The notes under the pieces are model-generated. The model was not told where the DNA came from. It saw only the letters and a list, made by a program, of their open reading frames with translations, and searched no databases. From positions 67,084,001 to 67,148,000 of the forward strand of contig OZ241830.1 of the NCBI GenBank assembly GCA_965202585.1: a stretch of 64,000 nucleotides of DNA, read 5' to 3'. Source of the stretch: Thalia democratica (lineage: Eukaryota). The number at the start of each line of letters is the position of its first letter. Position 1 is the stretch's first letter. Below are positions 26,493 to 50,470 of the stretch, piece after piece. Position numbers and translations under genes: made by a program.

Positions 26493-29400
26493 CCTCTGAT
26501 CCGTCTCTTCATACATCTTCTCTTTCATCTCCTCGTTCCTCACCTCGTTCATAAGTCTCCTCTACCGCTCCTCGCCGATTCGTTTCTCGAGCCGTTCGTG
26601 CGAAAGTGCAATTAGAATGTACGTCACTATTTGATATCAATTTTAAAAACAAGTTAAAACATTAAAAGATAAAAAAATTCAATTTACAAACTTATATGCT
26701 ACTAGTTAGCAACAACATTACATTAATCCATTAGTCTATTTTTATTTTAACTTTAAAGTTTCTTAAGTTTCAAAGTAAATGAGAAACATTTTTGGCTCCC
26801 ATCAATATACATTAATTCTCTACAAGTTTTAAAATAAAAAACATTTCACATTTTACACGAATTAGTTGACAAAACAAGCATTCACATGCGTCTCAAAAGT
26901 TTAAACTTGTTTTTGTAAAAATACAAAGCCAGTAAACTTGTACTGATTTTAAAAAACTTTCATATTAAAACAAATTTTAAACAAAGTTCTTTTTAGTTTT
27001 CAGATTTTAAATACCGGATAAGACATTTCATAGCTCGAATGACCTTGTTAAAAAATGTGTTTTTTTTTAAGTACGGTTAAATCTAAAACAACAAAAAACA
27101 TGCCAATAAAGTTTGTTACAAGCAATTAACAAGGTCATTGTAAAAAAAAACTTTAAATATTATAGTTTAAAGTTTGAACATAACATTGTTGCTAAATATA
27201 AAACTAAATTAAGTTTAATAAACTTAAGAAATTTCACTTCAATAACCGATTATGCACTCGAAAACAAGTTTTAATAACCTCATACAAATATTATTACAAG
27301 GACGAATGAAAAAACAACAATGTTTTTACATGCAGTTTAAAAAGTTTATTATCCCTTATAGTTCAAATTAAACGATTGTTCGAAAACAAAACAATTAAAC
27401 TTTACAGTTGCTAACTTTTATAGACGTTTAAAACTCTTTTTGTTATAAGAAAGTTTTATTATTAGAAGCCTTTAGTTTCATTTTAATTTTTAATAAAATG
27501 TTTAAAACGATTGAACGATATTTAATTAATTTGACAAAACGCGGAACAACTTGAAAACAAGACTAACTTTTGTTTAAACTTGCTCGTACAAGTTTAAAAC
27601 TCATTTTGAAAAACGCTTCAACAATGAATTGCAATAATATCTACACAACAAATACATTTTAGTTCTAACACATGTCCATTAGCTTTTCCCAAACCACTTT
27701 AACATAAAATTCAACACAATAAAGCTAATTACTTTTTGCAAAAAACAACACAAATCTCTCACAAACTCGAACTACTTAGTTGATTTTCCAACTAGAAATT
27801 TTAAACTCATTTTTAAAACTTTACAGACCAGATGACTGGGTTAAATAAATGCCCTTAAGTTTATCGAATTTATAATATTATTAAATAAGGTTTATTTTAC
27901 TCTGTTTTCAAGTCACCATCTACAAAACGTAAAAATTTTAATGAAGGTATCTGTGTTCAATTCCAGTTATAAATAACTGGACGTCCGGGTCACCATGTCG
28001 CTACCTGGTTAAAGATTCTACTTATATATACTATTTTTGGCCTGGTTTAATACGCAACGTGCGCTCCAACTTACAAAGTAGAAGTCCCCAAGATAACGCT
28101 TAAATTATAGTTGACTTAAATGAACTAATATGAATTACTTACTATTTACTAAATGTTTGATAAATCAGTTACTTATACTAATTTAAACTGAGTTCGAATT
28201 TGTGATCATGAATATATTTACAATGAATTTGCGAAACGAAAAGATGATAAAAAACTGCACAACATTACACTAGAATAACAGAAACTAAACACTACATGTT
28301 TAAACCAAACTCAAAAAACATTCTAAAATCGAAATCACTTCAACAAGATCGAAACCATTAAAACTTAAGTGCAGCAAAAAGCTGCACTGAGTTCAGGCCG
28401 TTCAATGAAGTAGAAACTAGAAAAACTGAACTGAACTAAACCAATTACGCGATATTCTTAATTTATACTTGCTTGAAAAAAAGAAGAAAGTAAAAAAGAG
28501 ACAATTACCGCTCACGCGGTACAGCTTCAAGAAGTAAACAACTCAGAAAAAACCCCTAATTAGAAACAACTCTAAACCGCTACCAAGCGGTTACAGTTCT
28601 AACCATTTTTTATTTTTGCATGTGGAATAAAGCTGACGAAAAGAAAATAACAAGTTTTGTTTTGCTAATTTTTTATATATATTAAAGAAAATAGATATTA
28701 AGTATACAAAAGAAAAAATCTAAACCAGGAACAATAACTTGCAGGTTGTGCTTAAAAGCAGCTTTATTAATGCTTGAATCTAGAACAAATTGCGACAGTT
28801 TTTAAGGAAAACAAAGAGACATGAGGCTTTAAACTTAAATTTATGCCAAAACTAACAGATGAACTAAGAGAATTCTAAAATAAAATGATAAACTTAATCA
28901 CACAGGTAAAGTTTACAAAAATAAGTTACAGCTTCCAAGATAAACTAGTAAATGATCTTATAATAAGTAAAACCGAAACCGGGAACGGGTCAGAAAAGCA
29001 CGGGTGACACTTTAGCACGGTGTGACACTTTAGCACGGGGTGACACTTTAGCACGGGTAGACACTTTAGCACGGAGTGACAATTTAGCACTAAATTGTGC
29101 CTAAATTGCATAATCATTTTATAATTAATAAATTTAATTGTAAACGTTTTATAAAATACAAATTTTACACGTATTTAATTAAATTATTTAAAACTATCGA
29201 TGGTGCTTAAGTGTCACTCCGTGCTTAAGAATCATTTTGTGCAAAAGAATCAATCAGTGATAAAGTTACACTCCGTGTTAAAGTGTCACCCCGTGCTAAA
29301 GAGACACTCCGTGCTAAAGTGTCACCCCGTGCTAAAGTGACGCCGTGCTAAAGTGTCACCCCGTGCTAAAGTGTCACTAAAGGTGTTTTTAAATTTTTTT

Positions 29401-32227
29401 CTAGTACTCGGCTGTACTAAAACAGTATTCCGCATGTTTTTAGAATAATTTTTTTTTTGATTCTAAAATTTTTTTGTTATAAGTATTTTGTATTTGTAAC
29501 TTTGATATTTTCACTAAGAGACAGCTTTTCAGCAGTGAAATTTAAGATATAAAATCAGTTTAGCAGATTGAAAGTAAAGAGACAGCTTTTCAGCAGTTGT
29601 AGAAAATTAAGAAAATGAATAAATATAATCAGTTTAGCAGATTGTAAGTAAAGAGACAGCTTTCCAGCATTTAGTAAAAGTGCAGAAGGCTGTGTCTTTG
29701 TTAAACTTTGTTTTATCTTTGAGATCAAATTTAAATTTGTTACATGAAACAAATTAAGAGGTAGAGCGAAGAAATTTAAACGTGAAATAGAGGTAAAAGA
29801 AACAAAACAACTCATCTTAATAGAAAAAATTAGAATTAGCAATAGATGAGCTAAATCAAGAAACCGGAAAAGAAATTTTTTTCAAACTATTTAAGAGTCA
29901 TTAGTAAACAAGTAAAAGTTATTAAAATGGCTTTACCAGGTGGTCAAAGGATTAATACAAGACATAAAATCTCGAGTTGCTTCATATGACGAACTACAAT
30001 TAGCTGTAGCAAGAGAAAAGCGAAAATTGAATCCTTGCGCACGTCTTCAAATCGATGTTACCGAAAATCTCGTCAATAAATGGAATGGAAGAGAAGTCTT
30101 TAACACTGCAAATGTGTTTGAAGGTTAGATAAGCTAACAGCATAATAACATTTTAAACAGTTTAGTTGTTAGTTCTTCAATAACTTCTTAAAATTTTACC
30201 TATATTTAAAGGCAACGATGAACAATCTGAAACATTCTAAAATAAATATACTTTCAAAAGCTCCGTGTCAAAAATAAATGATGAACCAGACCATTTTAAA
30301 GCTGATATTATCAAAGAACTGTGGAGTAAATTTTATTTTTGCTGCAGGCCTAATTGAAATCACAGAATATGAAAAAGATTTAATAAGATATTGCTGCAAA
30401 ACAGTACTGTTCCACGAAAGTGAACCATGGTCGAAAAAGCATAACAATCTTCGATGTACCGATGGGAAGCATCCATGGCGCAGAAATTCGCGAACTGGTT
30501 GGCTTATATACCTTAAATAAATTAAAGTAGGAAAAGATCTTTAGTGATGTTATCTTTGGCATATAGTGTGATGATGGTCTAGCAGTGGTGGACATTCAAC
30601 CGGGACCAAGTATGAAGAGTATAGTAATAAAAAAACAGTTGGTCAATGAGAAGTGGTTCCATATTGATGCTTTTGAAACAAAATTACAACTGTGGACATT
30701 AGGGTGCATCTGTTGCCTCGACCTTAGAGTTAAGCTTAGTCTAGCTTTTTGTGCGTGACAAATCACTTTAAAAAAAAAAAACCTTCCTATAACCTAATAA
30801 AAACACATAACGTAGAAGGAAAAATTCAAAAATTTATCAAAAAATTTTAAAAGGTCTGTTAAAATATTGTTTTTAGGTATACGGCTATACTAAAATAATT
30901 TCCCGCATGCTTTTCACAATAAAATAGTTTTTATTCAAAAATTTTCTTGTTATAAGAATTTTTCTATTTTTATACTTTGATATCTTTACTAAGAAACAGC
31001 TTTTCAGCAGTTGTAGAAAATTAAGAAATTGAAGATATAAAATCAGTTTAGCAGATTGTAAGTAAAGAGACAGTTTTTCAGCATTTGGTAAAGGTGCAGA
31101 AGGTTGTTAAACGAGTTTTTCTTTAACATGTACTTTAAATTAAACTTGTTACAAGAAACAAATTAGCAATTATAAGCGAAATACAAATAAGATATAAGAG
31201 AATAAATTCAAACGCGAAACAGAGGTTAAAGAAACAAGACTTATCTTGGCAGAAAAAATTAGAATTAGCAATAGCTAAGCTAAATCAAGAAACCGGATAA
31301 GAAAAGGTGTGAATTATTTAAAAGTCATTAGTAAACAAGTAAAAGTTATTAAAATGGCCTTACCAGGTGATCAAAGGATTAACACAAGACATATAATTTC
31401 GTTTTGCTTCATATGACGGACGACAATTAGCTGTAGCAAGAGAAAAGCTGAGATTTAATCCGTGCGCATGTCTTCACATTGATGTTACTGGAAATCTAAT
31501 CAATTAAAGGAATGGAAGAAAAGAAGTCTTTAACACTGCAAGTGTGATGAAGGTTAGATAAGCTAATAGCATAATTATTATTTTAAACAGCTTAGTTGTA
31601 AGTTCTTCCACAACTACTTGAAATTTTACCTATGTTTATAAGCAACGATGAACGATCTGAAACATACTAAAAATAAGTTTACTTTTAAGAGCTGCGTGTC
31701 AAAAATAAATGATAAACATTTTAAAGCTGATATTACCAAAGAACTGTGGAGTAAATTTTATGATTCTACAATGACAAAGGTAAAAACTGAGAAACAACTG
31801 GATAGAAGTCATAAAATGAAAAAGTGCTTAAATTAGTTAAGCATAAATTTTGTTTTTTTATTTCATGTCATTCGTAGTATAATACAAAAATATTTTTAAA
31901 TGTCGTTTAGTCGGCCATAACAGCAATAGCCATTATCGTAATAATCAAAACACATCTTTCTTAATCTAAAATGCAGTTAGACCAAAGAAGCGGAAAGTCA
32001 ATAGGGTGACCTAATTTACTTTCGCCCCCTTCGTTGGTCAAACATATGGGCTAAAGAATGAAATTGAATGAAAACTCCTTTAATTTTGCTTCTAATTTTT
32101 AAAGTTTAAAAATAATTTACTTTTAAATGCTGCGTGTCAAAAAAAAAAAGATGAATCAGACCATTTTAAGCTGATATTATCAAAAAACTGTGTAGTAAAT
32201 TTTATGATTCTACAATGAAAAAGGTAA

Positions 32228-33251
32228 CCCCAGCCTGATGATACAAAATATGCTGCTATTTTAAAACTGACATTAGTCGAAAGGAACAAAACACAGATGC
32301 AAAGATTCTAGAGAGAGAAGCAGATTTAACAAAAAGGATAGTGAGTTTCAAAAGATGCACTAAAACAATGGGTCCAAAAGAGAAGCATGATTTGGAGGAG
32401 GATTTGAAAAAAGACATTGTAAAATATAACAAAGAAGTTGACGAGGTCAATAAAGAGAGGATGAAATTACATCCTATAGTCAAGAGTAATTTTTTAACAA
32501 AATGGCAAACAGGATTAGATAAGAAATGGAAAAATGCTCAGGAAGAAATAAGAAAAAAGCAGAGTTAGTAAGTAAGTATGAAAATGATATTATACCTGCC
32601 GAGGATGGTAAGGACTATGTTGATATCCCTTCTTGAGTGCAGGTCCCAGTCTTGTCTCTGATATTAGGAGCAGGATAGAAACCCTATCTACATCAAGCCA
32701 ACAATCTCAGCAAGTTGCTGTGCGTAAGCAATTGACTCTAGAACAATTCAAAGAATACCATAAAAGGGTTAGCGATGATATGTCAATGATCGAATATAAA
32801 GGAGACATCACTATGTCTGATGTTGAATTCTACTCTTACGATAGACTTCTAGTGTTTCAGAGGATTTGGGAGAGGGCCAAAAGCAGGGAAATCATAGTTA
32901 GCTTAGATGACAAAACTTTTGGCACAGACGTTTTCATTTGGCTCGTTCGAGGAACAAACTTTGAAAGAATCAAGAGAGGCCTAAGCGACAAGACTAAAAA
33001 TTGCTTGAATACTCTGATCAGGAGGTACGGCTTTAAGGGTCGTTCGATTAACCAAGAAACCAAGACGATGGAACGTCTGCAAAATGATGATCTAACAGTT
33101 TCTCGTTTCTGTGACATTTATCCCATGAGAGTGTGGGCCGTGTGGAATAATCCCAAGTTGACAGAAAGACCAGACTTCTTAACATTTACTCATCTCACTA
33201 AGGCTGAAAAAAAATTTATCAGAAATTTTAGGTGTCCCTCGTTGCCTTACC
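32228..33251 (+). pseudogene. Endogenous viral element: phenuivirus-like (Bunyavirales) nucleocapsid, N-terminal and central part
   Basis: VEFYSYDRLLVF..WLVRGTNFERIKRGLSDKTKNCLNTLIRRYGFKG..NDDLTVSRF aligns to phlebovirus N EFAYQGFDARRV..ALTRGNKPRRMMMKMSKEGKATVEALINKYKLKE..RDELTLSRV. An upstream charged helical extension is readable through frameshifts. GC is higher than the flanks; no introns. Confidence 0.8.
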
Positions 33252-33881
33252 CTACCCCCAGAGCAAGCAAGAACAGGTGTAGAAGAAATTGTTTGAGAAT
33301 AAAGAGATATTTGAATACATAAAAAAAAAAGAGATACATCAAGAAAATGTAAATATTACATACTTACTAATACTTAGTACTGTACAGTTTTATAACTTTT
33401 ATACAAACAGTTATATGAACCAACCGTTGGTAATTGGTGATATGGTGAGTGTACGTATTAATAAAGTGATATTATGTCATTTGTTTTCAAAAATGAATTA
33501 AGATTTGTTAGAAGTCTCAAATGGTAAAATGTTTGACAGTTGTTTTTTTTTTGCAATATTTTATACATTTATCTCTTTTTGTTTAATTAAATGTTTAATA
33601 TTATAATCATTTTAGTTTCATCTTTTTCATAATTACAAAAAACCTTACTTATGTCACTAGGAAATGATGAAGGATCTAAAAAATTTTCCTAAAAACCCAG
33701 CAATCACCCTCCCTTGGTAATTGCTGAGGTGGTGAGTGTACGTATTAATAAAGTGATGTTACGTCATTTATTTTCAAAAATAAATGAAGATTTGTTAGAA
33801 GTTTCAAATGGAATGAAAGAGAAGTCTTTAACACTGCAAGTGTGTTTAAAGGTTAGATAAGTTATATAGTGTATATAGAAA

Positions 33882-34260
33882 TATCTTACTAAGGAAATTA
33901 GAATGTTATGGTGTGAGAGGAAAAATGCATCTACAAATCAGTTCATATCTATATGAAAGGAAACAGTTCGTCAGCTTTAGAGGATATGAATCAACCTGTG
34001 AAACAAGTTAAGTTGGGGTACCACAAGGCTCAGTATTAGGACCGTTGTTATTTCCTAATACACATAAACGACTTACAAAATAATACTAGTCTTAAAGTCC
34101 TCAACTTTGCAGATGATACAATGTTATACAAGACATTCACGAAAGACACATTACATACCTAAATAACAGTAAAAACTTTAACACAAAACTAAAAAAGGTA
34201 TAACATTGGCTTATGGGAAACAAACTTAAACTAAACCTTAATAAAACCAGAATATTGATA
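33882..34260 (+). mobile_element. CR1/L2-type LINE reverse transcriptase fragment
   Basis: ILLRKLECYGVRG..SSYLYERKQFV..GVPQGSVLGPLLF/LIHINDL..NFADDTMLY. Confidence 0.92.
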
Positions 34261-34639
34261 AGAAGTCCTTAATATGCAACTTGTAGTATATCCAGTTTTA
34301 AAGATAATTTCATCAGAGCAAGAAAATTAATCACAGGCAATTTAAAACGCTTCTCGAAAATTCAGACTCAGACTATACCGATATTTATAAAACATACAGC
34401 TGTACGCTGGTTGAGTTTAGGAAAATCTATTCAAAACCAGGAAAAATTTCAATTATCTAATGTTAAAAATTAGAAAATCTAAAGTAACAGTTAATACAAA
34501 CAAATATATTGCTTTTGACTAAACTTGCCAACTAAGTAAGTTAGTTGGCAAAGACAGCTTCTTAAGACATAAGTTTTCTAACTCAAGTATTCCATCTGAG
34601 TCATTTTTAAGCTTGTGGTTTAAGCTTGATTTTAGTCTT

Positions 34640-35050
34640 TGAAAAAATATTATGCAAATTATCAAAATGAAGAAGTTTTCAACAACATCAAAGGCTTATA
34701 CCAAAATGCATTAAACAAAAGTTATTTCAAATATAATTTAACTCCAAACAATTTAACAGTACCAATATTAAAAAATATGAAAAAAAAATTGCATTTAGTA
34801 TTACCTCCAACCCCTTTTGTACATCTGTACAGACCAAAATTGGCAAGCGTTTCCCAGAATTGATAGATAGACTTTTTAAGAAGGACAGCTTTTACCACAA
34901 AATAATTAACAGAAATTGCATAAAAATACCATATTGCTGCACACCAAACGTTATGGCCATTATAAATTAACACAACAAAAAGCTTATGAAGAAATCAGAT
35001 AAAAACGAAAAACTTTGCAATTGTAGATCAAAAACAAACTGCTCCGTGGA
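34640..35050 (+). mobile_element. PLE fragment (thumb/linker into GIY-YIG region)
   Basis: YQNALNKSYFKYNL..TKIGKRF..INRN..YCCTPNVMAII..HNKKL..CNCRSKTNC. Second copy at ~41380-41650. Confidence 0.8.
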
Positions 35051-36479
35051 TATTTCTATTTGAATAAGAATTGGAAATGTTTGTTTTTAATAAACGAAAG
35101 ATCTTTTCGAAGTGTTTGTAAAAAACTGAGACTGATTTTTGAATGGATCTAACCATTTTTTATCTTTGCCATGTGGAATAAAGCTTACAAAAAAAGATTA
35201 ACAAGTTTTGTTTTGCTAATTTCTAATATATATTAAAGAAAATAGATATTAATTTATACAAAAGAAAAAATCTAAACCAGGAACAATAACATGCAGGTTG
35301 TGCTTAAAAGCAGCTTTATTGATACTTGAATCTGGTACAAATTGCGACAGTTTTTGAGGAAAACAAAGAGACAAGGCTTTGAATATACATTTATGCCAGA
35401 ACTAACAGACGAACTAAGAGAATTCTAATATAAAATGATAAACTTAATCAAACAGGTAAAATTTACAAAAAAAAAGTTACAGCTTCCAAGATAAACTAGT
35501 AAATGATCTTATAATAAGTAAAACCGAAACCATAACCTGCTGACAAAACAAAAAATTATTACAAAGTTCCAAAATAAGAATTTAAGAACCTATAACTAAA
35601 ATCTTTAATAAAAGCATATAAAATGAGTGGTAACAGAAGACAATAATGGGAATTTTAAACTATTTGTTTGTTCCATCTATTTTATTTATTTTAAGCTTTT
35701 TGAAAAAAACCGTAAATGTTGTAAAAGTTAAAAAAAGTTCTAAAGTTTTAATAAAACAAATTATAGTAAGTTTGAATTGAAAGACGAAAAGCATAATGAG
35801 TGCAGTGTTTTTAATTCTAGTAACCCACATAATACATCTAAAGCGATTATAAATAAATACTTAGGTATTAAATCTATCAAAATAAGAAAAATTGGAAGAT
35901 TAAAAAAACTATATATTGGTTAGCAAGTTAGTTAGTAGTACCGAATTAAAAAGAACTTAGATCATGGATTAAAAGCCATCAGTGCTGTAGAAAAAGCATA
36001 GTGTGTATGTAGTTTACCAATCTAAACAACTCACGTTGGACTAAAAGAATTAAGATAATATTGAGCATAAAGTCTGATTCAGCAGAGGATATCAGTTTGG
36101 CTACAACTGCACCAAAAACTTACTTAAAATGGTTTTGGATTGTAGTTTTTTCATTATTTTAATTCAACGAAATTGTTTACATGCGAAATCATATAGTATT
36201 TTTTTGATATCATTTCAGGAAAGTGAACCATGTATAGTGATCGGCAGTTTTAATCTAAAGACGAACACTGAAATATAGCACTATGACTTTTTTTCAATAA
36301 AACCACCAAGAAAATGACATTTTCAGTAAACACAGATATTTTTTCTTAAAAACATAAAAATCAGAAAAACTACAAATGCAATGTAAATCAAGGAATAAAT
36401 TTTATTTTAATTGTCGATCAAATATGACCTTGCAAAAATTAGTTTAGAAACGTGTGTAACAATTGTTCATGACACCAAC

Positions 36480-36730
36480 ATATTGCATGTTTAGCAGTAT
36501 GCATGACAAATAACTGGAAAGCATGGTGAAGCACTAGCATTAGCTAAAAATTATTGCGGAATAAGTAAGGACGAAATCGACATAGTAGTTCACTGCTGCA
36601 AATTATTCCTTATTTACAGCGATTGTGCGTGGTCGAAGAAGGATATGGATGGCAATTTTGATACACTGCAGGAAAGTTTTCATGGTGCAGAAGTATGCGA
36701 ACTAGTAGGGTTACTTATACTCAATCAAGA
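36480..36730 (+). mobile_element. PLE RT fragment (different subfamily)
   Basis: ALALAKNYCGISKDEIDIVVHCCK..WSKKDMDGNFD..SFHGAEVCELVGLLIL. Confidence 0.8.
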
Positions 36731-37434
36731 AATAAAAGATTATATAAATCAAGAAACCGGATAAGAAAATGTGTAATACTATTTAAAAGTCATTAGTAAA
36801 CAAGTAAAAGTTATTAAAATGGCTTTACCAGGTGGTCAAAGGATTAATACAAGACATATAATTTCGTGTTCTTTCATACGACGAACGACAATTAGCTGTA
36901 GCAAGAGAAAAGCTGAGATTGAATCCGTGCGCATGTCTTCACACCGATGTTACCGGAAATCTTGTCATTAAATGGAATGGAAGAGAAGTCTTTAACACTG
37001 CAAGTGTGTTTAATGGTCAGTTAGGATATTTTTATTAGCACAATTAATATTTTAAACAGTCTAGTTGATAGTACTTTTATAACTACCTATGTTTAAAGGC
37101 AACAATGAACGATCTGAAACATACTAAAAATAAATTTACTTTTAAGAGCTGCGTGTCAAAAATAAATGATAAACCATTTTAAAGCTGATATTACCAAATA
37201 ATTGAGGAGTAAATTTTATTATTCTACAATGAAAAAGGTAAAAACTGCGAAATATCTGGATAGAAGTCATAAAATGTAAAACTTCTTAGATTATTTAAGT
37301 ATCAATTTCGTTTTATTTTTTCAGGTTATTTGTAATATAACACAAAAATATTTTTTAAATGTTGTTTAGTCGGCCATAACAGCAATAGCCATTATCGTAA
37401 AAATCACACAATATCTCTCTAAATCTAAAATGCA

Positions 37435-37740
37435 GTCAATCAAAGAAGCGGAAAGTCAATACGGTGACCTAGTTTACTTTTGCCCTCTTCGTTGGTCAAG
37501 TCGTGGTTTAATGTTTTCACGAATCTATGGGCTAAAGAATGAAACTGCATCATTTTTTAGAAATATAAATATAAATACATGTTTTTTAAATAAAACTGGG
37601 TATCTAATTTAACAATTCTGATCTCACATCGCGTTTCAACAAACTTAACTTGTTATAAAAATTTAAAAAACAGTTGGTCAATGAGATGTGGTTCCATATT
37701 GATGCTTTTGAAACAAAATTACAACTGTGGACATTAGGGT
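37435..37740 (+). mobile_element. hAT transposase fragment (GTF2IRD2/EPM2AIP1-like), recurrent module
   Basis: EAESQYGDLVYFCPLRWSSRGLMFSRIYGLKNE..W.SNL..LNL..QLVNEMWFHIDAFETKLQLW. Partial copies at ~8590, 9905, 30635, 31980, 39105, 41875, 47625 and 63612. Confidence 0.85.
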
Positions 37741-37799
37741 GCATCTGTTGCCTCGACCTTAGAGTTAAGCTTAGCTAAGAGTTAATAAAAATTTGATAA

Positions 37800-38300
37800 G
37801 TAAATAAAAATAGCAAGATACCAAAACTCGAAAAAAAAACAAGCGTTCTTTACAATTAAACATCACAAAGAAAACTTCCCCAATAAAATCGAATACAGAG
37901 TCATAAACCCAACTAAATCACCTTTCACTAAACACTCAAAAATCTTAATAGGTAAATTTAATTGTATAATACTAAAACACTCTAAATTAAACCAATGGGA
38001 ATATACATGCGAAGTGATCACCTGGTTTGAAAATTCAAAATTTAACAAAAACTACAGATTTATAAAATTCGACATCAATAAATTTTACCCAAGTATTACT
38101 AAAAATTATTTAATTAAAGCATTAGAATAAGCTGAAAATTTTTACCCAATAACAGACAAAGAAATGAATCTAATAATGCTCTCTTGTAAAGCAATTTTAA
38201 CACATATAAAAACCAAACCTGGGAAAAAATAAGTTCAAACCAGTTTTTCAATAAAAGTATGGGATCATTTAAGGGGGCAGAAATCTACGATTTAATAGAT
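37800..38300 (+). mobile_element. PLE RT fragment
   Basis: AFFTIKHHKENFPNKIEYRVINPTKS..LNQW..VITWF..FIKFDINKFYPSIT..MGSFKGAEI. Paralogous copy at ~42200-42680. Confidence 0.9.
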
Positions 38301-38629
38301 AAATGGACAAAAATCCCTAAAAGGTTTGTTAAAATATTTTATTTAAGTATTCGGCTATACTAAAACAATTTCCCGCATGCTTTTCAGAATGATATATTTT
38401 TGATACTATAACTTTCTTGTTATTAGTATTTTCTTTTTGCTTCTTTGGTATTTTCATTAAGAGACAGCTTTTCAGCAGTGGTAGATAATTTATAAGTTTG
38501 TGCCTTTGTTAAAATGAGTTTTTCTTTGACATTTACTTTAAATTAAATTTGTTACAGGAAACAAAATAGGAAATTTAAGCGAAATACAGATATCAAACGC
38601 GAAGCAGAGGTTTAAGAAACAAAACTCAT

Positions 38630-39040
38630 GAGTGTTTAGTTCCAAGTGTGCGTGAAGAAATTATGAACCATTTGGAAATACTATCCAAGTCATTTGACGG
38701 ATATTTCAAAAAAGGAGAACTGGAAATTTCTGAAGAATGAATGATAAATCCATATTCTTTTAATTTGAATCACATGTCCGATGATGAATCGTTAAAAGAT
38801 GAACTTAATAAATTATGCATGAACTGTTTTCTCAAAATGCAGTTTGAAAGCGAAACTCTTGAACAATACTGGTGTTGTTCAATGAATATGTTTCCAAAAC
38901 TTAGCTAAAAAGCACTAAGTACTCTCATTTTATTCGTGACGACTTACTTGTGCGAGTCTGGATTTAGTACTATTTTGTCAACAAAAACTAAATCAAGAAA
39001 CCGCTTGAATGCACAGGCAGACATGCGAATTGCCATCATA
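38630..39040 (+). mobile_element. hAT transposase C-terminal dimerisation domain (Buster/ZBED8-like)
   Basis: YWCCSMNMFPKLS*KALSTLILFVTTYLCESGFSTILSTKTKSRNRLNAQADMRIAI. Confidence 0.92.
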
Positions 39041-39479: not shown

Positions 39480-40030
39480 AGTGACCTTGATCTTACTGGT
39501 GCAGATGCTTTTATAACGATATAGGACCACAAAAAACACTTCCCTTTTAACACTGAGTGTAGAGTCTTAAACCCAGAAAAAAATGAGTTTGGCCGCATTA
39601 GTAAGATCATTCTAGAAAAAGCGGTCAGAAATATAAGACCAAAAATGCCCCTAGTACAACTGAAAAACTCTCTAGATGTAATAACATGGTTTAAAAAAAA
39701 ATTGAAGAGAAAAATAAAAAAATATTTTATAACATTTGACATTGTAAACTTCTATCTGAGTATTAAACATCATAACCAAATAAAAGCCATAAACTTTACA
39801 AAGAAGTATACAGAAATAGAAGATAAGGACATTAAGTTAATTGAACACACATGCAAAACAATTTTAACCTATGACAATAAAAATGATGAAAATGCATCAT
39901 TCGATGTACCGATGGGCTCTTTTTTCGGCGCTGAGCTCTGAGACCTTGTGGGACTATACTTCCTACACCGCCTTAAATATATTTATAACGAGATCAGCTG
40001 ATACAGAGATGACGGCTTCGCAATTGTAGA
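39480..40030 (+). mobile_element. PLE RT fragment
   Basis: VITWF..FITFDIVNFYLSI..IEHTCKTIL..FDVPMGSFFGAEL*DLVGL..YRDDGFAIV. Confidence 0.9.
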
Positions 40031-42829
40031 CGAAAAATAGTCGAATATATTTCTTTAATAGTAGATGAAACAACGTCTATTTGTATAAATCACAAGCAGT
40101 TTAAAACTTTAGAGTTAAAAAAGCTACATGATAGAATTATGAACACATTTTAAAGAAATAAGCTGACAATGGATGTTGAAAATATAAAAATGACAAAGAA
40201 AATATTCAAAGTTGTAAAAGGACTCATCAGAGTTTAAACAAAGACATCAAGAACTCAAGGATTGTTTCAGTTTTAAAGTCAACCAAAAAAACTATTTTAA
40301 GCTTTTTATTGTGAATAAATTTTAAAATGAATTGGCATCACTTGGTAAAAAAGATGAAAACGAAAAAAAAAACGTTATTTAAAAGATGTGGTACTTAAAT
40401 ATTAATAAAACCTTTTATTATTTCGTCATACTTCAAAGTTTAACGTCTTATCAACTTTAGTTTAAATAATCACCATAATCTCTCTCTCTTTATTTGGATA
40501 TATATAAAAACTTTGATTTTAAATTATTTTGGGAGGTGACAAAAAGAGCGCATAAAATAGCACATGGTAATAACCCTGTTTGTAGGTTGTACTTTTAAGA
40601 ATCAACAACCGCTATGTATGCATTAAAAAAGGAAGGTTGTTTAAATAAGAGGAGCGAATTCATATCGTCTTGTCGACATATGAAAAAGCTCCTCTTAAAA
40701 TAAAATAAATTTTGAAGTATTTAACTGTTGTCTTAGTGAATTTCAGTTGTTTTATTAGTTAGATGGAAGATTGATTTTTGTACTGAATTTTTGTAACGCT
40801 TAATATTACGTCATACTGTTTTTTGTTTTTTTGCATAACTTTTACATCTTTGTTTAGTACAGTGCTTTTTATTTTGAATTTAACTGGCTTATGATTAGAG
40901 CTTTATGAAAAATTAAAGCATTATGAAACATATGTACCAGTAATTTTAAAATCGTACTTTTTCAATAAATTATTTAAAAGCCTTTCAAGTGAGCTCTGTA
41001 GGAGGTGTTCAACTTTGAACAATAACCTTACTTTACATCGGTTAGCCAATATTCATCTAGGAAATTAGTTATTATACCTTTGGTCAAGTTTGTTTTTTTT
41101 TAGTACAAAGTAATTCTGCTGTTTAAAATGAACTAAAATCCATAACAAATAGAGCTTCTTATATGAGTACTAAAGAGAGATGATGAAAAAGAATCAGTAT
41201 TTTTTTGATGGTAGAAATTAGAAAAAAAAGTTTCATTAGACATATTACATTGTGGCAGACCATCAAACAGCTTATTAGATTGAGATGTTGATTTCTTGTG
41301 TGAAAAACTGCTGTGGATGAAGACAAAAGCAAGAAACAATGTTTAGATATTTTGTTAAATGCTGAGTTTCTACTGAAATAAAGTTGTTTTTTAATCAATC
41401 TATTTAGAAGATCTTCTGCATAAGAATAAAATGCTAGAGTGACAGCATTTACCACAAAATAATTAACAGAAATCGTATAAAAATATCATATTGCTGCACA
41501 CCAAACGTTATGGCCCTTAAAAATTCACACAACAAAAAGCTTATGAAGAAATCAGATAAAAACGAAAAACTTTGCAACTGTAGATCAAAAACAAACTGTC
41601 TCGTGGATATTAAGTGTTGCCTAAATAACGTCATATATCAAGCTAATGTTTCCAAGTTTAGCAATTGTGATTAATGTTCAATGTATTAAATCAATTGAAG
41701 TAAAGATAATGGAGATTAAAATAGATAGTATATCGTAAGCTTCGGCAAAGATATTAGTTATTTCACCTTTAATTGAACATTTATTTTAATATCTAAGTAA
41801 TTCTGCTGTTAATAACGAACTAAAATCCATACGAATAGAACTTATTAGATAAGTACTAATGAGCGATGATGATTTGTTGGTCAAACATATGGGCTAAAGA
41901 ATGAAATTGCATCATTTCTTAAAAGTAAAAATTTATGTTTTCGAAAATTAAAACTGGATATCTAATTTAACAATTCTGATAGATCTCACATCGCATCTGA
42001 ACAAACTAAACTTAATATAAAAAGTAAAAAAATAGTTGGTCAATGAGATGTGGTTCCATATTGATGCTTTTGAAACAAAATTACAACTCTGGACATTAGG
42101 GTGCATATGTTGCCTCGACCTTGAAGTTAAGCTTAGTCTAGCTTTTTGTGGTGACAAATCACTTAAAAAACATAAAATTAGCATTTTATAACCTAATTAA
42201 AACACATAATGTTGAAGGCAAGATACCAAAAGTCGAAGAAAACAAGCGTTCTTTTCAATTTAAGATAAAGAAAAATTCTCCAATAAAATCGTAAACAGAG
42301 TCATAAACCTAAGTAAATCACCCTTCATCAAATACTCAAGAAACTTAATAAACAAAATTAATTGTACAATACGAAAACATTCTAAATTAAACCAATGGAA
42401 AAATACAGACGAAGTGATCACCTAGTTCGAATATTCAAAATTTAACAAAAACTACAGATTCATAAAATTCGATACTACCAAGTTTTACCCAAGTATAACT
42501 AAAAATAATTTAAGCATTCACTGAAAAATTTTACCAAATAACAGACTAAGAAATGAATCTAATAATACACTCTTGTATAGCAATTTTAACACATAAAACC
42601 AAACCTAGGAAAAACAAGTTCAAATCAGTTACTAAAAGTAAGTATGGGACCATTTGACGGTACAGAAATCTGCGAAGGAAAATCTTAAAATCAAAATTAA
42701 TAAGATTCACAGATCGTACAGGAATCTAACCAAATGTAAAATAGACAAGCAATGAAGTCTTGAAAGCGCTAAACAGTCATCTTTAAATGTAATTAATGCT
42801 AACGGATAATGGGGATGTCAATACAAAAT

Positions 42830-43450
42830 ATAGTTATTATTGTTAGTAAATAATAGAAAACAATTTATAGGTAGTCTTAAATATCTTAAAACAAACTTTA
42901 GAAATTTTTTAAGTAAAACTTTATAGGAAAGACCAAACCAAGAAGTCGTCATGGCTCGAGTGACTGTAACTCTAAGAAAAAGAATTAAATTTGGATGATG
43001 AACAGAGCACAATACCAAAGAAGAGTAAAAGAAAATTTGGTCAAGGTGAAGCATTTTACCAAATGAAAGTCAAAGTAAGAAGTTAATTTGTTAAACTTAA
43101 AACTTAAATTTTTTCTTATTTGTTTCTGAACAGGCTTTGCTTGCAATTTTAAAAGATAAAGTAATACAGGCTATTACCGTTAGTAATGTTACTTTAGGTA
43201 ATGTATCACCAATTTCATAGAATGAAGATGAAATAAGTATAGAAGAGGTAGACATAAAAAGTGGTAAAATAGAATGTATGCCTGAATATAATGATGATAT
43301 TTTTGTACATAATGATGAAAAGTCTGACCCGAATAATTCATATTTAATTATTTGTACTGGGATTTCATCCAAAGAAAACCTTAAAATAAGTAAACTTACT
43401 CCACCACAAGCTTTAAAACATATAGTTTCTGACAATTACACAATATAGTT
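42830..43450 (+). pseudogene. Intron-containing gene fragment of unknown identity
   Basis: ..GEAFYQMKVK|ALLAILKDK.. joined by a 59-nt GT-AG intron (43075-43133, gtaaga..tgaacag); internal stops on both sides. Confidence 0.45.
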
Positions 43451-44079
43451 GTTAGCTTTAATTTTGAATATAAAGTTGTTTTAAGGTAGATTCTTATAGT
43501 ATAAAATCAGTTGTAGATGAAACTTGTAAATTTATTCATGAATTAAACTCTAAGAATTTTTTCATATTATTTAAATTTCCAAATGAACTCATAAAAACTA
43601 AAAAAATTAACAAGCTCAAGATGAGGTAGGTTTTTGAAATAATCGAAGACATTTTAATCCCGATATGACAAAGTAAGGATTCTATTACTTACCAAAAAAT
43701 TATGTACTCATTTAATAGCATTACAGATATCTCATACAATGGTGAATGTCCATCTAACTGTTTCTGTCTTAAGCCAAAATTCATTAAAAAAATTAAAAAA
43801 GTTTTGAATGAAAACATATATAGGCCAAATCAGCTTACTATGAGTTTAATGATCTATTAAAAACCAGGAAAAATTTCAATTATCTAATGCTCAAAGTTAG
43901 AAAATCTAAAGAAGTAACAGTTAATACAAACAAATATATTGCTTTTGACCAATTTTGACAACTGACTAAGTTTGTTGGCAAATACAGCTTCTTAAGACCC
44001 AAGTATCTGAGGAAAAAAGTAATTTACCCTTTTTAGTTATTAGATCAAATATCAGTAGAATTGGATTACTTGATTTACA

Positions 44080-45459
44080 ATGTCACTATCAAGAGAGAGT
44101 TTCGCATTATGCGGTGTTGACGGCGTGGTCTACCAAGGATCCCTCAATACAGGAATGTGCAAGGAAAAACCTGATATGCCCAAAGAGTATTTTGATGCTC
44201 ACAAAAGCAAGCCAGTGATTCCAGTCTATACTATAAATGAGACTGATGATAATCTGAGAAACCTATTTAAGAAGATCAGAAATAGTATCGGCAAAGCTAA
44301 CAAGGAACTCAAGTCTGTGTCAGCTTTTATGTGGTACTTTATGGGTAAGATTGAGTCTACGTTGAAGAAGTCTTGGGTTGCCAACGGTCAATTGATAGGG
44401 AGTGAGGGACAAGTGATAACTCCAAAGTCTTTAATAAGTCCTGATCAAAAGATTTTGGAAATAGGTGTCGAGAGCGGAGTGGAAGTTTCAGAGGAGCAGG
44501 CATGGCAGTTATTCTGGGCACTCGTCGGAGCTTACAGACTCGCTTCTCTCAAGGGTAAGAGCGATTACTATGTAAAGGCAGTACAAACCAGAGTGATAGG
44601 ACATTTTAGGCTGTCTCCTTTTGAGGCGAGTGTTGGAGATACGACTCCCTTGACAATGGCTCCAATGTTAGATAAGTTAGAGTACACTGGGTTGATAGCG
44701 AGCCTCAACATGTTTTTCAATCGTTTCAGCGATCATGAGTTTGCCAGTTGCGGACTAGGCACATTATCTTCTAGATATAGAAACTGCGCCACCTTAACCA
44801 GTCTGATATCCTTCGCTTATCAAGTCAATAGAAAGTTTACAGAAGTGTTTGAACACTTTCCGTTTATGGAATTGGTTCCAGAACTTAGAAGACTTACTGA
44901 TCCTAATGAACAGGACGAGCCGGACTCGTATTCTCCGTACATAAAGGACTTCGGAATTTGCAAGGTATCTCCGTATTCATCAACTGCCAATCCTCTCATG
45001 TACACCCTGCTGCACATCACTGGCACTGCTCTAGGTCACGAGAGATCCATGAGAGCCGTAAGAGTCGGAGATGTGTCCAAAGACACATTATTGAGAATGG
45101 GGTGTATAGCTGCTATGTGCCTGAGAAATTATTCAGGTTATGAAATGATCGCTGCTAGCAATACAGAGCTTATGGAAGAAAGGAAAGCCGGTAGAAGAAG
45201 TGCAGAAGAGTATGCAACTGGACCTGAGCTTCTTAAGTATGATAGAGCTATAGCAGCTGGAACAAAGATTCCCCCAAGTTGGAAGCCTTGGTTTAGAACC
45301 GGGACTGGTTGGGATGTCTTGGAAATGCTCAGACACTCTGATGGGTTGTTTGACAGTTTCAGGAAGATGATAAAAGCCAAGATTTCATATTCCGAGATGA
45401 GACAGAATTCAATTGGCAAAATGGTACAAGAATATGTCACTGCTCCGGACTTGAGTTGA
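44080..45459 (+). CDS. N: Endogenous rhabdovirus nucleoprotein, intact 459-aa ORF
   Basis: NMFFNRFSDHEFASCGLGTLSSRYRNCATL..DSYSPYIKDFGICKVSPYSSTANP..RSMRA matches VSV N DMFFHMFKKHECASFRYGTIVSRFKDCAAL..DSYMPYLIDFGLSSKSPYSSVKNP..RARNA. Also AYRL vs LYRV. Length typical of rhabdoviral N; intronless; GC clearly higher than the flanks. Confidence 0.95.
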   Translation: MSLSRESFALCGVDGVVYQGSLNTGMCKEKPDMPKEYFDAHKSKPVIPVYTINETDDNLRNLFKKIRNSIGKANKELKSVSAFMWYFMGKIESTLKKSWVANGQLIGSEGQVITPKSLISPDQKILEIGVESGVEVSEEQAWQLFWALVGAYRLASLKGKSDYYVKAVQTRVIGHFRLSPFEASVGDTTPLTMAPMLDKLEYTGLIASLNMFFNRFSDHEFASCGLGTLSSRYRNCATLTSLISFAYQVNRKFTEVFEHFPFMELVPELRRLTDPNEQDEPDSYSPYIKDFGICKVSPYSSTANPLMYTLLHITGTALGHERSMRAVRVGDVSKDTLLRMGCIAAMCLRNYSGYEMIAASNTELMEERKAGRRSAEEYATGPELLKYDRAIAAGTKIPPSWKPWFRTGTGWDVLEMLRHSDGLFDSFRKMIKAKISYSEMRQNSIGKMVQEYVTAPDLS

Positions 45460-45491
45460 TCATAGGTTTAAGTTATAAGTTTGACCGTTCA

Positions 45492-45504
45492 CTAGAAAAA
45501 AAAA
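45492..45504 (+). terminator. Rhabdovirus-type gene-end/polyadenylation signal (CTAG-A9)
   Basis: ctagaaaaaaaaa lies 33 nt after the N stop codon and resembles the TATG(A7)/TAG(A7) transcription stop signals of Rhabdoviridae. Host AT-rich sequence follows immediately. Confidence 0.65.
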
Positions 45505-46144
45505 TATATTTTTTTTTTTGATAGAATTAGTTTGTATATTGAGGGTCCGATTGTTTATTCTACGGATTTCACCTTTTTTTTCTTACTGAGCAATTATGTA
45601 ATCGTTTAATTGTCAACAAGTTAGTCATAGTAACAATAGAATGTTATAAGCAAAAATAAAACACAAACAGTAATCTAGTTGGTCCTAGTAACAACAGAAT
45701 ATTATAATGAAAAATAAAAATAAACACTAATCAAACTAATATAAATGTGAAATTTAGCCTCATACTATTTATATTCTATACAAGATTATTATTTTATTCA
45801 AGCTATGATAACTTAAAAATTTCATCATAGCTATGTTTATTTTTAGAATTTGTTTAAAATCAAAAATGCCCAACAAATTTATAGAGTTCATTATTGAAGT
45901 TAAAGAAAAATTTCCAGAAGATATTTCAATAAATGATTTTGAAAAATTATTGTTAAAACTTAATGAATTTTATATTTTTATAAAAAAAAATTTAAAATGT
46001 TGAAAATATACTTGATTTAGATTTTTCTAAAGATTATTTATTTTTCTCTCACAGGGAATCAACAAATAGTTCACCTAGTACACATGGTGATCTTGACTCA
46101 GGTCCATCAAAATTGGTTAAGAAAGGATTGGTACCAAATCTACT

Positions 46145-46747
46145 AGAGGATCTGGGAGAGGGCAAAAAGCAAGGAAATCATAGTTAGCCTAGATGACAAA
46201 ACTTTTGGCACAGACGTTAATGACATCGTTTTCATTTGGCTCGTTCGAGGAACAAACTTTGAAAGAATCAAGAGAGGCCTAAGCGACAAGACTAAAAATC
46301 GCTTGAATACTCTGATCAGTAGGTACGGCTTTAAGGGTCGTTCGATCAACCAAGAAACTAAGGCGATGGAACGTCTGCAAAATGATGATCTTACAGTTTC
46401 TCGTTTCTATGATATTTATCCCATGAGAGTGTGGGCCGTGTGGAATAATCCCAAGTTGACAGAAAGACCAGACTTCTTAACATTTACTCATCTCACTAAG
46501 GCTGAAAAAGAATTTATCAGAAATTTTAGGTGTCCCTCATTGCCTTACCTTCAAAACAAAGGATGACGGTTCAAAAGACATCTCAGATTTTCGCAACATT
46601 CTTGTGACTCATGCTATTGTTCTGACTGATTTTGATCGACTAATGTTCTCATGGGTTAGGAAGAGAGAAAATATGCCTGATGAATTTAAACCTAGAATTG
46701 AGTTTATTCAGCAAATCATCAAGAAAAAGGCTAATAGAAGTCTTTAA
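46145..46747 (+). pseudogene. Endogenous phenuivirus-like nucleocapsid, central and C-terminal part
   Basis: About 400 bp near-identical to 32860-33251. After one frameshift it continues FKTKDDGSKDISDFRNILVTHAIVLTDFDRLMFSWVRK..KKKANRSL*, comparable to phlebovirus ILDAHSLYLLQFSRVIN. Confidence 0.8.
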
Positions 46748-47849
46748 TCAGCAATAGATGAGCTAAATCAAGAAACCGGATAAGAAAATATGTAAAACTA
46801 TTTAAAAGTCATTAGTAAACAGGTATGAGTTATTAAAATGGTTTTAAGAGGTGGTTAAAAGAGTAATACAAGACATAAAATTTCGTGTTGTTTCATATGA
46901 CGAACGACAATTAGCTGTAGCAAGGGAAAAGATAAAATTAAATCCTTGCGCACGTCTTTACATCGGTGTTACCGGAAATCTCGTCAATAAATGGAATGGA
47001 AGAGAAGTCTTTAACACTGCAAGTGTGTTCAAATGTTAGATAAGCTAATAGCATATTTAATTTTCTGGAAGTTTAGTTTTAGGCTCTTCGACAATTACTT
47101 GAAATACTACCTATGTTTATAAACAACAATGAACGATCTGAAACATACTAAAAATAAACTTACTTTTAGGAGCTACATATCAAAAATAAATGATAAACCA
47201 GACCATTTTAAAGCTGATATTACCAAAGAATTGTTGAGTAAACTTTATGATTCTACAATGAAAAAGGTAAAAACTGGAGTCATAAATGTAAAACTGCAAG
47301 ATAACTGGATAGGAGTCATAATATGTAAAATGCTTAAATCGTTAAGTATCAATTTTGTTTTATCTTTTCAGGTTATTTGTAGTATAAAACAAAAAAAAAT
47401 TCTAATTGTTGTTTTGTCGGCCACAGGGACGTAGCTAGCTCAAAAAAGTTACGAGTCTGCAAAAATTAAAACATCTGAAATAACGCGTGATAACGACCTA
47501 GCAGGAACACAGCAATTTAAACTACCTCTAATGTTATTAAATTTAATCTGAAAATATGCAGTTATGTTAATACATCAAAAATGGAATGTGGAAGTACGAG
47601 TGATAACTGTAAGGCAATTTAGTGAGATCAAAGAAGCGGAAAGTCAAAACGGTGACCTAATTTAATTTTCCCCCTTCGTTAGTCAAGTCATGATTTAATG
47701 TTATCACGAATATATGGGCTAAAGAATGAAATAGCATCATTTCTTAGAAGTAAAAATATAAAAATATACGTTTACGAAAATTAAAACTGGATATCTAATT
47801 TAACAATTCTGATAGATTTTGTATCGCATCTGAACAAAATTAACTTGTT

Positions 47850-48170
47850 ATAGCAGACGAGACAACTGATATTAGTGTCCAAAATCAGCTGTCAATCGTT
47901 TTAAAATACATACACTAAGAAAATGTTGTTGAGAGATTCTGATTAAGGCAATTTTCAAAATCCAGTTGCTAGAATTAGAAAGTCAATCATAACAGACCAT
48001 GAGTCTGTAAATCTCTCTGCTGCTGCAAAAGAGGTTTGCGACAGTGTACATCTAAATGTTGCAGAAAGGTTTAAGTTTTCTGGCCAAGAACTGTATATTT
48101 TAAGTAGGACAAAAAAAAATAATTTAGGAGTAGCTTTAAATATCAGAATAATTTTGTATAGCCTAGGATA
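47850..48170 (+). mobile_element. hAT (ZMYM1/DUF4371-like) transposase fragments
   Basis: DETTDISVQNQLSIVLKYI..VVERF, then ..EVCDSVHLNVAERFKFSG. A related LIVDETTS fragment lies at ~40060. Confidence 0.7.
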
Positions 48171-48899
48171 ATTATGCCTGAAAGACCAGTGTTTTTTTTT
48201 TTTTTGACAGATGGAAAACTTTAACACGTTTTTGAGTGCAAACACAATGAACACTTTTAAAAAATTAAAGTTGTAAAATTAAATAGTTATTTTAATTTTC
48301 TCTAAAAACTTTTACACTAATTGCAGAAACGTGCAGTCTGGACCCACTACTGCGTTCTATTGGACGAAATATATTTTGTGAAAGATGCTAAAGAACAATT
48401 CGAGATTATCACTGCTAACTAGAGACCAACTACTTCGTACTGTATGACAAATCTGGTTTTGCAAAAAAAAAGATAAAGAGTTAAAGATAATAACGTACCA
48501 ACTATCACGTACGTACGTTAGCGACCACATGAGTGCCAGCATTCAAGTACCCATTTGCTACGCCAAGCTGTTGGCACTCGGATCCAGGCAGTATTAAAAC
48601 GGAGAAAACCTAAATCAAATAGGTTTTGCTTGACTTAAATTTTTATGGAGTTGTGATCATAACTAGAGGAAAAGCAAATTGAGGTAAATCAGTAGCTCGG
48701 CAAGATATAGCAGTTAATTTATTTTTGCAGTGGGTGTTTTGTTATGTATACACAAAATCATTAAATGCGGTCAAGGCAAAACTTGAATCTATTTGTAAGT
48801 CTTCAAAACATTAGCAACATTTTCTTACAAGAAGAGAGGTGAAATGTATTATACAAAACCAAATGTGTTTTGAGAATCAATCTCTTTTCGACATCATAG

Positions 48900-50470
48900 T
48901 AAATAAAAACCAATGTGAAATACTTGTAAACTGGTATATGAAGATTTTAAATTTCATGAAAAGATGGCATAGGATGTTGCTCATCATTTGTCCATAGAAA
49001 GTGAAAAACATTAAATGAAAAAAAATTAACTTCACAGATCCAGATAACAGAAGGCTGATGAATGGTGATTGCAAATATTTCAAGTTCCAATTGAATTCAC
49101 TAGTGATGCTGAGATATAAAAAGAAAAAGATAGAGTATATTTTATCCAATTGAAAAGTTTAGATCAAAATGAACAGCTTCAAAAAAGTACACTTTTGCTG
49201 TAACTGATAGATTGCTTATTGATGATATGCCTTTGAAGTATAGAAATATACGGCTTGGAAAACGAAAAGTCCCCCCAGAAACCTACCAAGTTGTTCAAAA
49301 GCTTAAATCAATGCTTCACACATCTTAAGCTAAAAGATCGATTGCTGAAATTGCAAACACTGATCTTAGAAGAAATAAATTTGGTTCTTGGTAAGTTTAC
49401 AAACCTGACAAACCATATTATATGAACACTTTGCCAGCATCTTCTAAAAGTGACATACTAGATCCATACGGAGAAGCCATGGTTCTTTGCTTAAAATTTC
49501 CTCCGGCCAAGAAGAGTCTCTTCCTCAAGTATATTGTTTGCTTACCGGTTTCTGTGTGTGAGAAATGTTTTATAGAAAACCTAAAAACGGTTAGTAATAA
49601 CTGTCTCCGCCAAATCTTGTATCATAACAATGCAAGATGGAGGATGTTTCTGGACTTGAAAGTTCTTGGTAATTATGATACAGCCGCATACCAGACAGAA
49701 ATACCTTCTTATTTTAACACCTTCGGCGTTAGACGTGAAAGGACAATGGATCCAAGATTTCTGAGATGTATAGACGATTCTATTAGCCACATACTGACTA
49801 GGAAAGTGAGGAGCGTCGGTTGGCGGTACTCCAAAGCGCATGGGAATAGGGATAGGCAAAACTCAAGAGACACAGAATGGTTTGCACTGGCGCACATGAT
49901 GGGTGAACAAATCTACAAGAGACGTTTGTCTGATCATGAGTTGGATTGTTTGTCAAGCTATTCAGGGGTATGACACTTTTTGTCTTATCAGGTTAAGCTA
50001 TCTTGAGCAAGCAATAGATAACCTGTTGTAAGTTCTGGAATAGTATTGGGTTACAAGGGAGGGAAAAGAATTTAATGTTTGCTAACATCTTGTCCAATGA
50101 TTGAATTTTAGATTGTGCACTGATCAGAGTAAATTTGACCAGTAACAAGCCTATGATTGGATAGTATACGCGGTGAATAATTTAGTCAAACAGCTTTCTC
50201 TGAATAATCATCCTGGTTTATCCTCATGACTTACCTCTGTTTGTTGAGAAAGAGATTGAATCTCTATCACAAGTTTATATCTATGACAGGAGAACCAAGT
50301 TCATGTGAAAACATGGTATTCTTAGTGGTTATCGTTGAACTGCTCTCCTGGATCCTATTATTAACCGCGCTGCTACGCGGTGGGTTTTTGACAGACTGGT
50401 AGCTCTGGTTTGTTATGAGGTTTACCAAGGTGATGATGCTTCGGTACCATTCAAATGGAAAACTTAAACA
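48900..50470 (+). pseudogene. Endogenous toti-like dsRNA virus RdRp (decayed)
   Basis: Motifs occur in the correct order: WRMFLDLKVLGNY, motif A DQSKFDQ (50122-50142), motif B GILSGYR*TALLDPIIN (from 50315), motif C YQGDD (50423-50437). Several stops and frameshifts; the 5' boundary is uncertain. Confidence 0.85.

Follow-up and report, generated by a model that had tools for sequence, protein, structure and literature searches.

Do invertebrate chordates possess a counterpart of the flamenco-type loci that, in insects, are documented to hold pieces of RNA viruses? The question is raised here by a 64,000-nucleotide stretch of the AT-rich, 802 Mb genome of the tunicate Thalia democratica (C6:67,084,001-67,148,000; hereafter the window, whose own numbering is used below wherever no C number is given). 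The mitochondrial COX1 of this genome makes sense only when AGA/AGG are translated as glycine (table 13), the tunicate code, which also led us to reject Hydra as a candidate host. Between 28,597 and 50,450, the window holds a mosaic body of approximately 43 short pieces derived from transposons, viruses and an Argonaute gene, every one of them sense on the plus strand. An earlier note, made from the letters alone, had proposed that all transposon and viral fragments here share one strand, and that a long minus-strand precursor starting to the right of 50.5 kb would give PIWI-interacting RNAs (piRNAs) antisense to all of them. We found that this polarity is real and non-random. We put at roughly 0.7 the probability that the C6 locus is a compact, uni-strand, piRNA-cluster-like source of small RNAs that archives transposons together with three groups of RNA viruses.

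Strand polarity of the body

We determined orientation by protein and DNA comparison. When every stop-free frame of at least 40 amino acids around the region was compared with Pfam (in the run that gave the plus-strand matches, 85 of the 89 proteins came from the region), matches on the plus strand were to Rhabdo_ncap, Tenui_N, Piwi (E = 1e-3, 48,448-48,594) and, weakly, a hAT dimer domain and RVT_1. On the minus strand, none of the 106 frames matched a transposon family and matches were at chance level only, the best having E = 0.007. Two of these weak matches bear viral names, IBV_3A (0.019) and Flavi_NS4B (0.043), but both coincide with pieces assigned to the plus strand by other references. 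For tblastn we used 186 references, comprising intact transposon open reading frames (ORFs) from elsewhere in the genome, viral relatives and all long ORFs of the outside loci, with parent ORFs read from the closest copies of each module dispersed in the genome. This resulted in 45 non-overlapping matches between 28,590 and 50,450, of which 43 were on the plus strand; both minus-strand matches are the antisense shadow ORF of the 3' end of one Penelope-like element (PLE), whose true ORF matches there on the plus strand. The reversed-sequence control gave 1 weak match. At the DNA level, 46 of 46 matches to parent elements whose orientation is known were sense on the plus strand. Protein matches orient approximately 50% of the body, and 65% is oriented once the DNA evidence is added; 5.8 kb, in 11 gaps of at least 150 bp each, has no orientation, and a minus-strand piece is possible there. 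The earlier note's claim that all fragments share one strand, with none recognisable on the other, held in both searches.

Where that note had counted about ten independent co-oriented families, we found twelve sources: PLE (counted once), CR1, three hAT types, OTU-MULE, Mutator-like, an unclassified element, three virus groups and Argonaute. A test on these families gives a two-sided p = 4.9e-4, post hoc; adding the second viral capture and the families found only in paralogues brings the count to 15 (p = 6e-5). At least 9 PLE pieces (at least seven had been claimed) and 8 hAT pieces of three types (at least eight had been claimed) all lie on the plus strand. The CR1 reverse transcriptase, both bunyavirus-like nucleoprotein pieces, the rhabdovirus-like nucleoprotein and the toti-like RNA-dependent RNA polymerase (RdRp) were each matched on that strand, as had been read from the letters. 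To these we add pieces the note had left unnamed: at least 9 Mutator-like pieces, 2 OTU-MULE pieces, one unclassified high-copy element and the Argonaute piece.

Eight control stretches, 160 kb in total, held 12 recognisable elements, 3 on the plus and 9 on the minus strand, with mixed orientation in two of the three stretches that have several elements. Against these 12 elements in 160 kb stand 43 pieces in the 22 kb body, where dense transposon remnants of a single orientation are present. Purine and AT skew also shift across 28-50 kb.

Sister copies and their shared head

The same modules occur, reshuffled, at three further loci on C6, here called Aup (66.994-67.008 Mb), B (71.433-71.452 Mb) and C (71.609-71.616 Mb). 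Their body matches are co-oriented as well, with 15/15 in Aup, 20/20 in B and 9/9, plus one shadow match, in C. The paralogue bodies add a gypsy-type integrase (one piece each in Aup and B) and another type of reverse transcriptase. A MITE-like piece (miniature inverted-repeat transposable element) at 47,424-47,621, which has no coding strand, is inverted in B relative to the window. Exchange of modules between paralogues was considered and is unsupported, as the ranges of gap-free identity for the body (74-93%) and for the head (79-93%) overlap.

This head is a low-copy segment on the minus strand immediately to the right of the body (50,452-56,350), predicted to comprise a promoter, a first exon, an intron and the start of a second exon. 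It is colinear in the four loci, although split by 25 kb in Aup, and, MITEs aside, no other place among 40 scored candidates contained it. Rfam gave 0 matches on the three paralogous head loci. The most conserved block of the upstream head (55,194-55,322, minus strand) has 106 of 130 columns identical and contains CCAAT-type boxes at 55,243 and 55,305; CCAATCAG, from this block, has a background of 0.019 per kb in control DNA. The block may allow NF-Y and DR1 readings. An NF-Y link to mosquito clusters was dropped, since the terms do not appear in the available text of 10.1101/2022.08.22.504762.

A 1,056-nt intron is predicted on the minus strand at 51,732-52,787, with a donor G/GTAAGT at 52,787 and an acceptor Yn-CAG/ at 51,732, both kept in 4/4 copies. 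Strong donors conserved in all four copies number only two, both on the minus strand and none on the plus strand. By generic matrices, the top conserved acceptor is that at 51,732 (mean 9.4 bits), the runner-up scoring 7.8 on the plus strand. This acceptor is directly followed by GTGAG (51,731), a strong donor of 14.7 bits in 4/4 copies, making a recursive-type site. The proposal that a minus-strand transcript enters from the right of 50.5 kb stands as far as it concerns sequence (the conserved head, the minus-strand donor and acceptor, and the CCAAT boxes at 55.2-55.3 kb), while the piRNA-cluster label goes beyond it and is one that we infer, a sense kinase gene abutting three of the copies.

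Two arrangements may serve as natural controls. In paralogue B, a 0.9-kb PLE lies reversed within the predicted intron, beside a hAT in the usual direction, and is the sole wrong-way coding element within the inferred transcript of any headed copy. A fifth copy, D (66.962-66.971 Mb), has no head within 57 kb beyond it and has 2 co-oriented and 3 inverted pieces. Both the reversed intronic PLE and the headless copy fit selection acting on a putative minus-strand precursor.

Distal to the body, and on the sense strand, B, C and D each have a divergent CK1-like kinase paralogue of several exons, which ends within approximately 2-4 kb of the body and is convergent to the heads (B 71.454-71.457, C 71.619-71.621 and D 66.968-66.970 Mb). 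Pfam gives a kinase only, and CK1 is our presumption. The gene looks intact in B, has DFR for DFG in C and has stops in D; the window and Aup have no kinase. Polarity thus tracks the head rather than the kinase, since the window and Aup are polar without it and D, headless and with a decayed kinase, has inverted pieces.

A second one-way region was found at C5:84,098,000-84,166,000 (68 kb). All 15 of its reference matches (hAT, PLE, CR1, Mutator-like, integrase and toti-like RdRp) are on the minus strand, as are long RTE- and gag-like ORFs, and its plus strand is purine-poor. It shows no likeness to the C6 head beyond MITEs, and no clear promoter or donor was seen at its edge. We regard it as a second candidate uni-strand cluster. 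At C5:84.131-84.133 Mb, minus-strand ORFs resemble, by eye, a piece of a p300/CBP-type acetyltransferase; a 358-aa frame there has no Pfam match.

Captured RNA-virus sequences

The viral pieces are co-oriented on the plus strand in 4/4 cases. One is a rhabdovirus-like nucleoprotein at 44,080-45,490, an uninterrupted 459-aa ORF followed by a TAG-A9 run, which we take to be gene-end-like. It matches Rhabdo_ncap (PF00945) at 44,074-45,456 with E = 2e-44 (152.5 bits against a cut-off of 26), is 84% identical to relative P0002 and 53% to P0003, and also matches nucleoproteins in the PDB. It is present as a single copy and absent from the paralogues, whose split lies at approximately 9-10% divergence. 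Under assumed neutral rates, the chance that such an ORF is still open at 2% divergence is below 5%; because so long a frame rarely stays open under these rates, the insertion is either much younger than the paralogue split or under coding constraint. Rhabdovirus-like nucleoprotein sequences also occur at C7:0.97 Mb and C2:67.6-67.8 Mb, the latter as three copies beside long coding-like tandem repeats.

Two pieces resemble Tenui/Phlebo-like nucleoproteins. Piece 1 (32,624-33,283, plus strand) corresponds to residues 30-252 of relative P0004, and piece 2 (46,126-46,729, plus strand) to residues 101-303, with one frame break. Tenui_N (PF05733) matches piece 2 at 46,147-46,563 with E = 2.5e-5, at 24.4 bits against a cut-off of 25; P0004, a 56-61% relative, itself scores 33.4 bits. 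Of 81 synonymous sites compared between the two, 8 differ, as against 6 of 309 that are non-synonymous (p = 0.003, in a model without transition bias). Because the differences are mostly synonymous, they suggest two separate captures. A 108-aa ORF (32,242-32,565, plus strand) adjoins piece 1 and had no match in Pfam or further searches.

A broken toti-like RdRp piece lies at 49,395-50,446 on the plus strand (match 49,494-50,446) and is common to the window and Aup. The toti-like pieces of the window have no Pfam match on their own; they are 33-43% identical to P0006, P0008, P0009 and P0018, which match RdRP_4 (PF02123). There are six toti-like matches genome-wide, five in the window and Aup and the sixth in the 68-kb region on C5. 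Between window and Aup, pN/pS is 0.6 (p = 0.09), which fits drift after duplication.

Transposon-derived and Argonaute pieces

All window features in this section are on the plus strand. Among hAT elements, type 1 is represented by an internal piece (38,628-39,040; 93-94% to dispersed copies) and type 2 by a module at 37,439-37,774 that was recognised from one weak tblastn match (E = 0.003) and from motifs by eye, with more copies at 30,630, 31,975, 39,096, 41,884 and 47,624. Type 3 (DUF4371; 47,847-48,087) has an internal deletion: the window retains residues 202-232 and 442-487, whereas other parts are kept in B (42-232, 440-534 and 574-634) and C (254-494), which points to one long insertion that eroded differently among the loci.

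An internal piece of a CR1-type reverse transcriptase (33,866-34,260) is approximately 90% identical to dispersed copies. A reverse transcriptase piece at 37,813-38,298 and further pieces at 30,338, 30,785, 34,666, 36,528, 39,492, 40,506-41,038, 41,450 and 42,228 are presumably Penelope-like; the label comes from motifs, the parent ORFs having no Pfam match. MULE transposase is represented at 43,167-44,006 (parent 958 aa, PF10551) and again at 34,424-34,600. The transposase module at 29,700-30,240, which keeps its GT-AG intron, has more copies at 31,142, 33,397, 33,660, 36,829, 40,037 and 46,851; we take it to be Mutator-like from motifs, its 1,324-aa parent ORF having no transposase match in Pfam. 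The unclassified high-copy element retains its natural left end and first ORF (45,543-46,142). No long terminal repeat (LTR) piece was found among the 43 window matches, with a reference set that held only one LTR element.

The retained Mutator-like intron and the natural end of the unclassified element indicate that these entered as DNA. Identity of the pieces to dispersed copies ranges from 71% to 94%, so captures date from different times. Junctions show 2-5-nt microhomology by eye. Addition at a leader end, as in CRISPR, was rejected, as the youngest-looking pieces sit mid-array.

A decayed C-terminal piece of an Argonaute-family gene lies at 48,174-48,594, with a second short copy at 50,452-50,539. 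It turned up in the five paralogous loci alone (genome search: 4 matches, 7 candidates), and its best match to genes elsewhere in the genome is 40-45%. Two further Argonaute candidates were rejected: 47,950-48,090, which tblastn shows to be hAT, and a match beyond the head of paralogue C, whose source is an ORF of a non-coding repeat. The host has Piwi-domain (PF02171) genes at approximately eight loci. At C8:51.63 Mb, an intronless Piwi-domain ORF has an open frame of 946 aa; we assume from motifs that this host gene belongs to the Piwi clade.

Flanks and local repeats

Positions 1-9,615 of the window duplicate 22,632-31,662 at 98-99% identity. The duplicate includes a recent (98%), headless copy of the distal end of the mosaic (6,553-10,078, plus strand), of which there is a third copy another 21.5 kb to the left. 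The distal flank is replaced, at 24,448-28,597 and 2,363-6,550, by a 4-kb segment that contains a 42-bp tandem array as well as a minus-strand ORF of 207 aa; near-identical copies occur nearby in both orientations, and Pfam and further searches gave the 207-aa ORF no identity. A Nudix-domain ORF (PF00293) at 18,112-19,576 forms part of a 21.5-kb duplicated unit and is present six times, nearly identical each time and in both orientations, in a span of 214 kb. Arrays of an 18-bp satellite occupy 1-1,001, 22,251-23,632 and 56,368-61,700, in both orientations and with a strand switch near 58.5 kb, and a different 18-bp repeat forms a foldback at 28,997-29,378.

Weighing the explanations

Judged from these sequence features, a piRNA-cluster-like locus would work as follows. 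RNA polymerase II would start at a promoter near 55.2 kb, within the head, and transcribe leftwards; the 1-kb intron would be spliced from the precursor, and the precursor would run antisense through the mosaic and be processed into small RNAs that bind Piwi and pair with the mRNAs of transposons and viruses. Elements and viral cDNAs would insert either way but be retained by selection only when antisense to the precursor, and deletions at short microhomologies would then trim them to internal pieces of 100-1,400 bp. The unit of kinase gene, mosaic and head would have been duplicated several times, each copy continuing to gain and lose pieces.

Several observations weigh against this reading. 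The p-values are optimistic, the window having been chosen by eye and after the fact, and pieces common by descent are dependent rather than separate counts. One control stretch, on C8, had 4/4 elements on one strand, and the other rhabdovirus-like nucleoprotein pieces (C7 and C2) lie outside such mosaics. Only one element makes up the intron control, and only 5 pieces are oriented in D. Three of the four elements upstream of heads are also co-oriented, so the promoter may lie further out. The matrices behind the splice scores were generic, and AATAAA occurs 28 times on the minus strand against 26 +/- 4.5 expected from composition, with no depletion.

The piRNA-cluster-like reading has three rivals. 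The minus strand may instead carry a long non-coding or distant coding unit, from which sense insertions are purged for their poly(A) or splice signals and which has no piRNA role. Such a unit would explain why a head with splice sites is present and which way the bias runs, and because the acceptor doubles as a strong donor at 51,731, the mosaic could be intronic, a further point against the piRNA-cluster-like reading. We nevertheless consider this unlikely: purging alone predicts neither the density of 43 pieces in 22 kb, set against the controls, nor the concentration of five of six toti-like matches here with the sixth in another one-way region, no downstream minus-strand exon common to the four copies was found, and the predicted intron tolerates an element that points the wrong way.

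The kinase beside B, C and D makes sense read-through possible, which also counts against an antisense precursor. Plus-strand RNA reading through from it might act as a decoy, as a ping-pong partner or, paired with the head transcript, as double-stranded RNA for small interfering RNAs. The proximity of the gene, the open rhabdoviral ORF and the read-through mechanism described for mosquito core clusters in the available text of 10.1101/2022.08.22.504762 favour this possibility. We find it distinctly unlikely, given that polarity persists in the window and Aup without a kinase gene and is lost in headless D with a decayed one, that double-stranded RNA would not select orientation, and that mosquito elements are antisense to the read-through. 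Mechanical co-orientation without selection, by a reverse transcriptase pasting concatemers of sense RNA or by local duplication of a few founders, is very unlikely: RNA-virus pieces do require reverse transcription, many modules are local repeats and the junctions show microhomology, but the retained Mutator-like introns and the differential erosion of one long hAT argue against RNA concatenation, as do one natural DNA end and very different piece ages, and separate concatemers would still land either way.

A compact, antisense-transcribed cluster remains our preferred explanation. A wider and far more tentative proposal is that tunicates might keep heritable antiviral and anti-transposon memory in small duplicable cassettes, each with a fixed head of promoter and intron, an antisense precursor and a hypervariable, self-compacting array with repeated RNA-virus capture, the convergent kinase perhaps supplying the sense strand for amplification. 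The array would here hold a single bunyavirus-like virus captured as two strains, a rhabdovirus-like nucleoprotein of recent origin, a toti-like polymerase and an Argonaute piece. The C6 locus is in any event a small, directly testable case, with a predicted start region and splice junction. Four sister copies are natural replicates of a trap model, the headless copy and the insertion within the intron provide controls, and public data contain close relatives of the viral pieces, at 84% protein identity for the rhabdovirus-like nucleoprotein.

Relation to known clusters

A literature search of incomplete coverage, with supplements outside it, returned no report of a tunicate uni-strand cluster with viral pieces. 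Tunicates make piRNA-sized RNAs, according to the available parts of PMC5174732 and PMC5897368, and host rhabdo-like and bunya-like viruses, as described in 10.1101/2024.12.15.628590, whose available text does not mention piRNA.

In the accessible portions of PMC4120762 and PMC10643416, Drosophila flamenco has a promoter, a spliced first intron and remnants antisense to its precursor. The C6 locus resembles flamenco and flam-like loci in its one-strand remnants, and would also do so in a discrete promoter, a spliced first intron and an antisense precursor, which are predictions at C6. It differs in size (22 kb versus 180 kb or more for flamenco) and in what carries the bias: Gypsy LTR elements in flam, as defined in the same portions, and DNA transposons, PLE and CR1 at C6, where a Gypsy-LTR-carried bias was not found with the one LTR reference in the set. 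Its pieces are also very short, and four paralogues have one common head.

The Aedes aegypti endogenous viral element cluster 38 and the mosquito core clusters are similar to the C6 locus in combining non-retroviral virus pieces with transposons, nearly all on one strand (PMC7161354, available part). Cluster 38 is 143 kb long and Gypsy-rich (same source), whereas the C6 locus spans 22 kb, is not Gypsy-driven and has a chordate host. In mosquito core clusters the precursor arises by read-through from an upstream gene, as stated in the available text of 10.1101/2022.08.22.504762, whereas at the C6 locus the gene is convergent to the inferred precursor. The kinase adjacent to the C6 copies lies on the same strand as the elements.

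Mammalian bornavirus-like nucleoprotein elements are single old insertions, in contrast to the dense mosaic of several viruses and transposons at the C6 locus. They sit in pachytene-type clusters. The mammalian elements give antisense piRNAs and, like the C6 locus, show nucleoprotein sequence of a negative-strand virus that a chordate carries in its genome and that lies antisense to a putative precursor (PMC12112416, available part).

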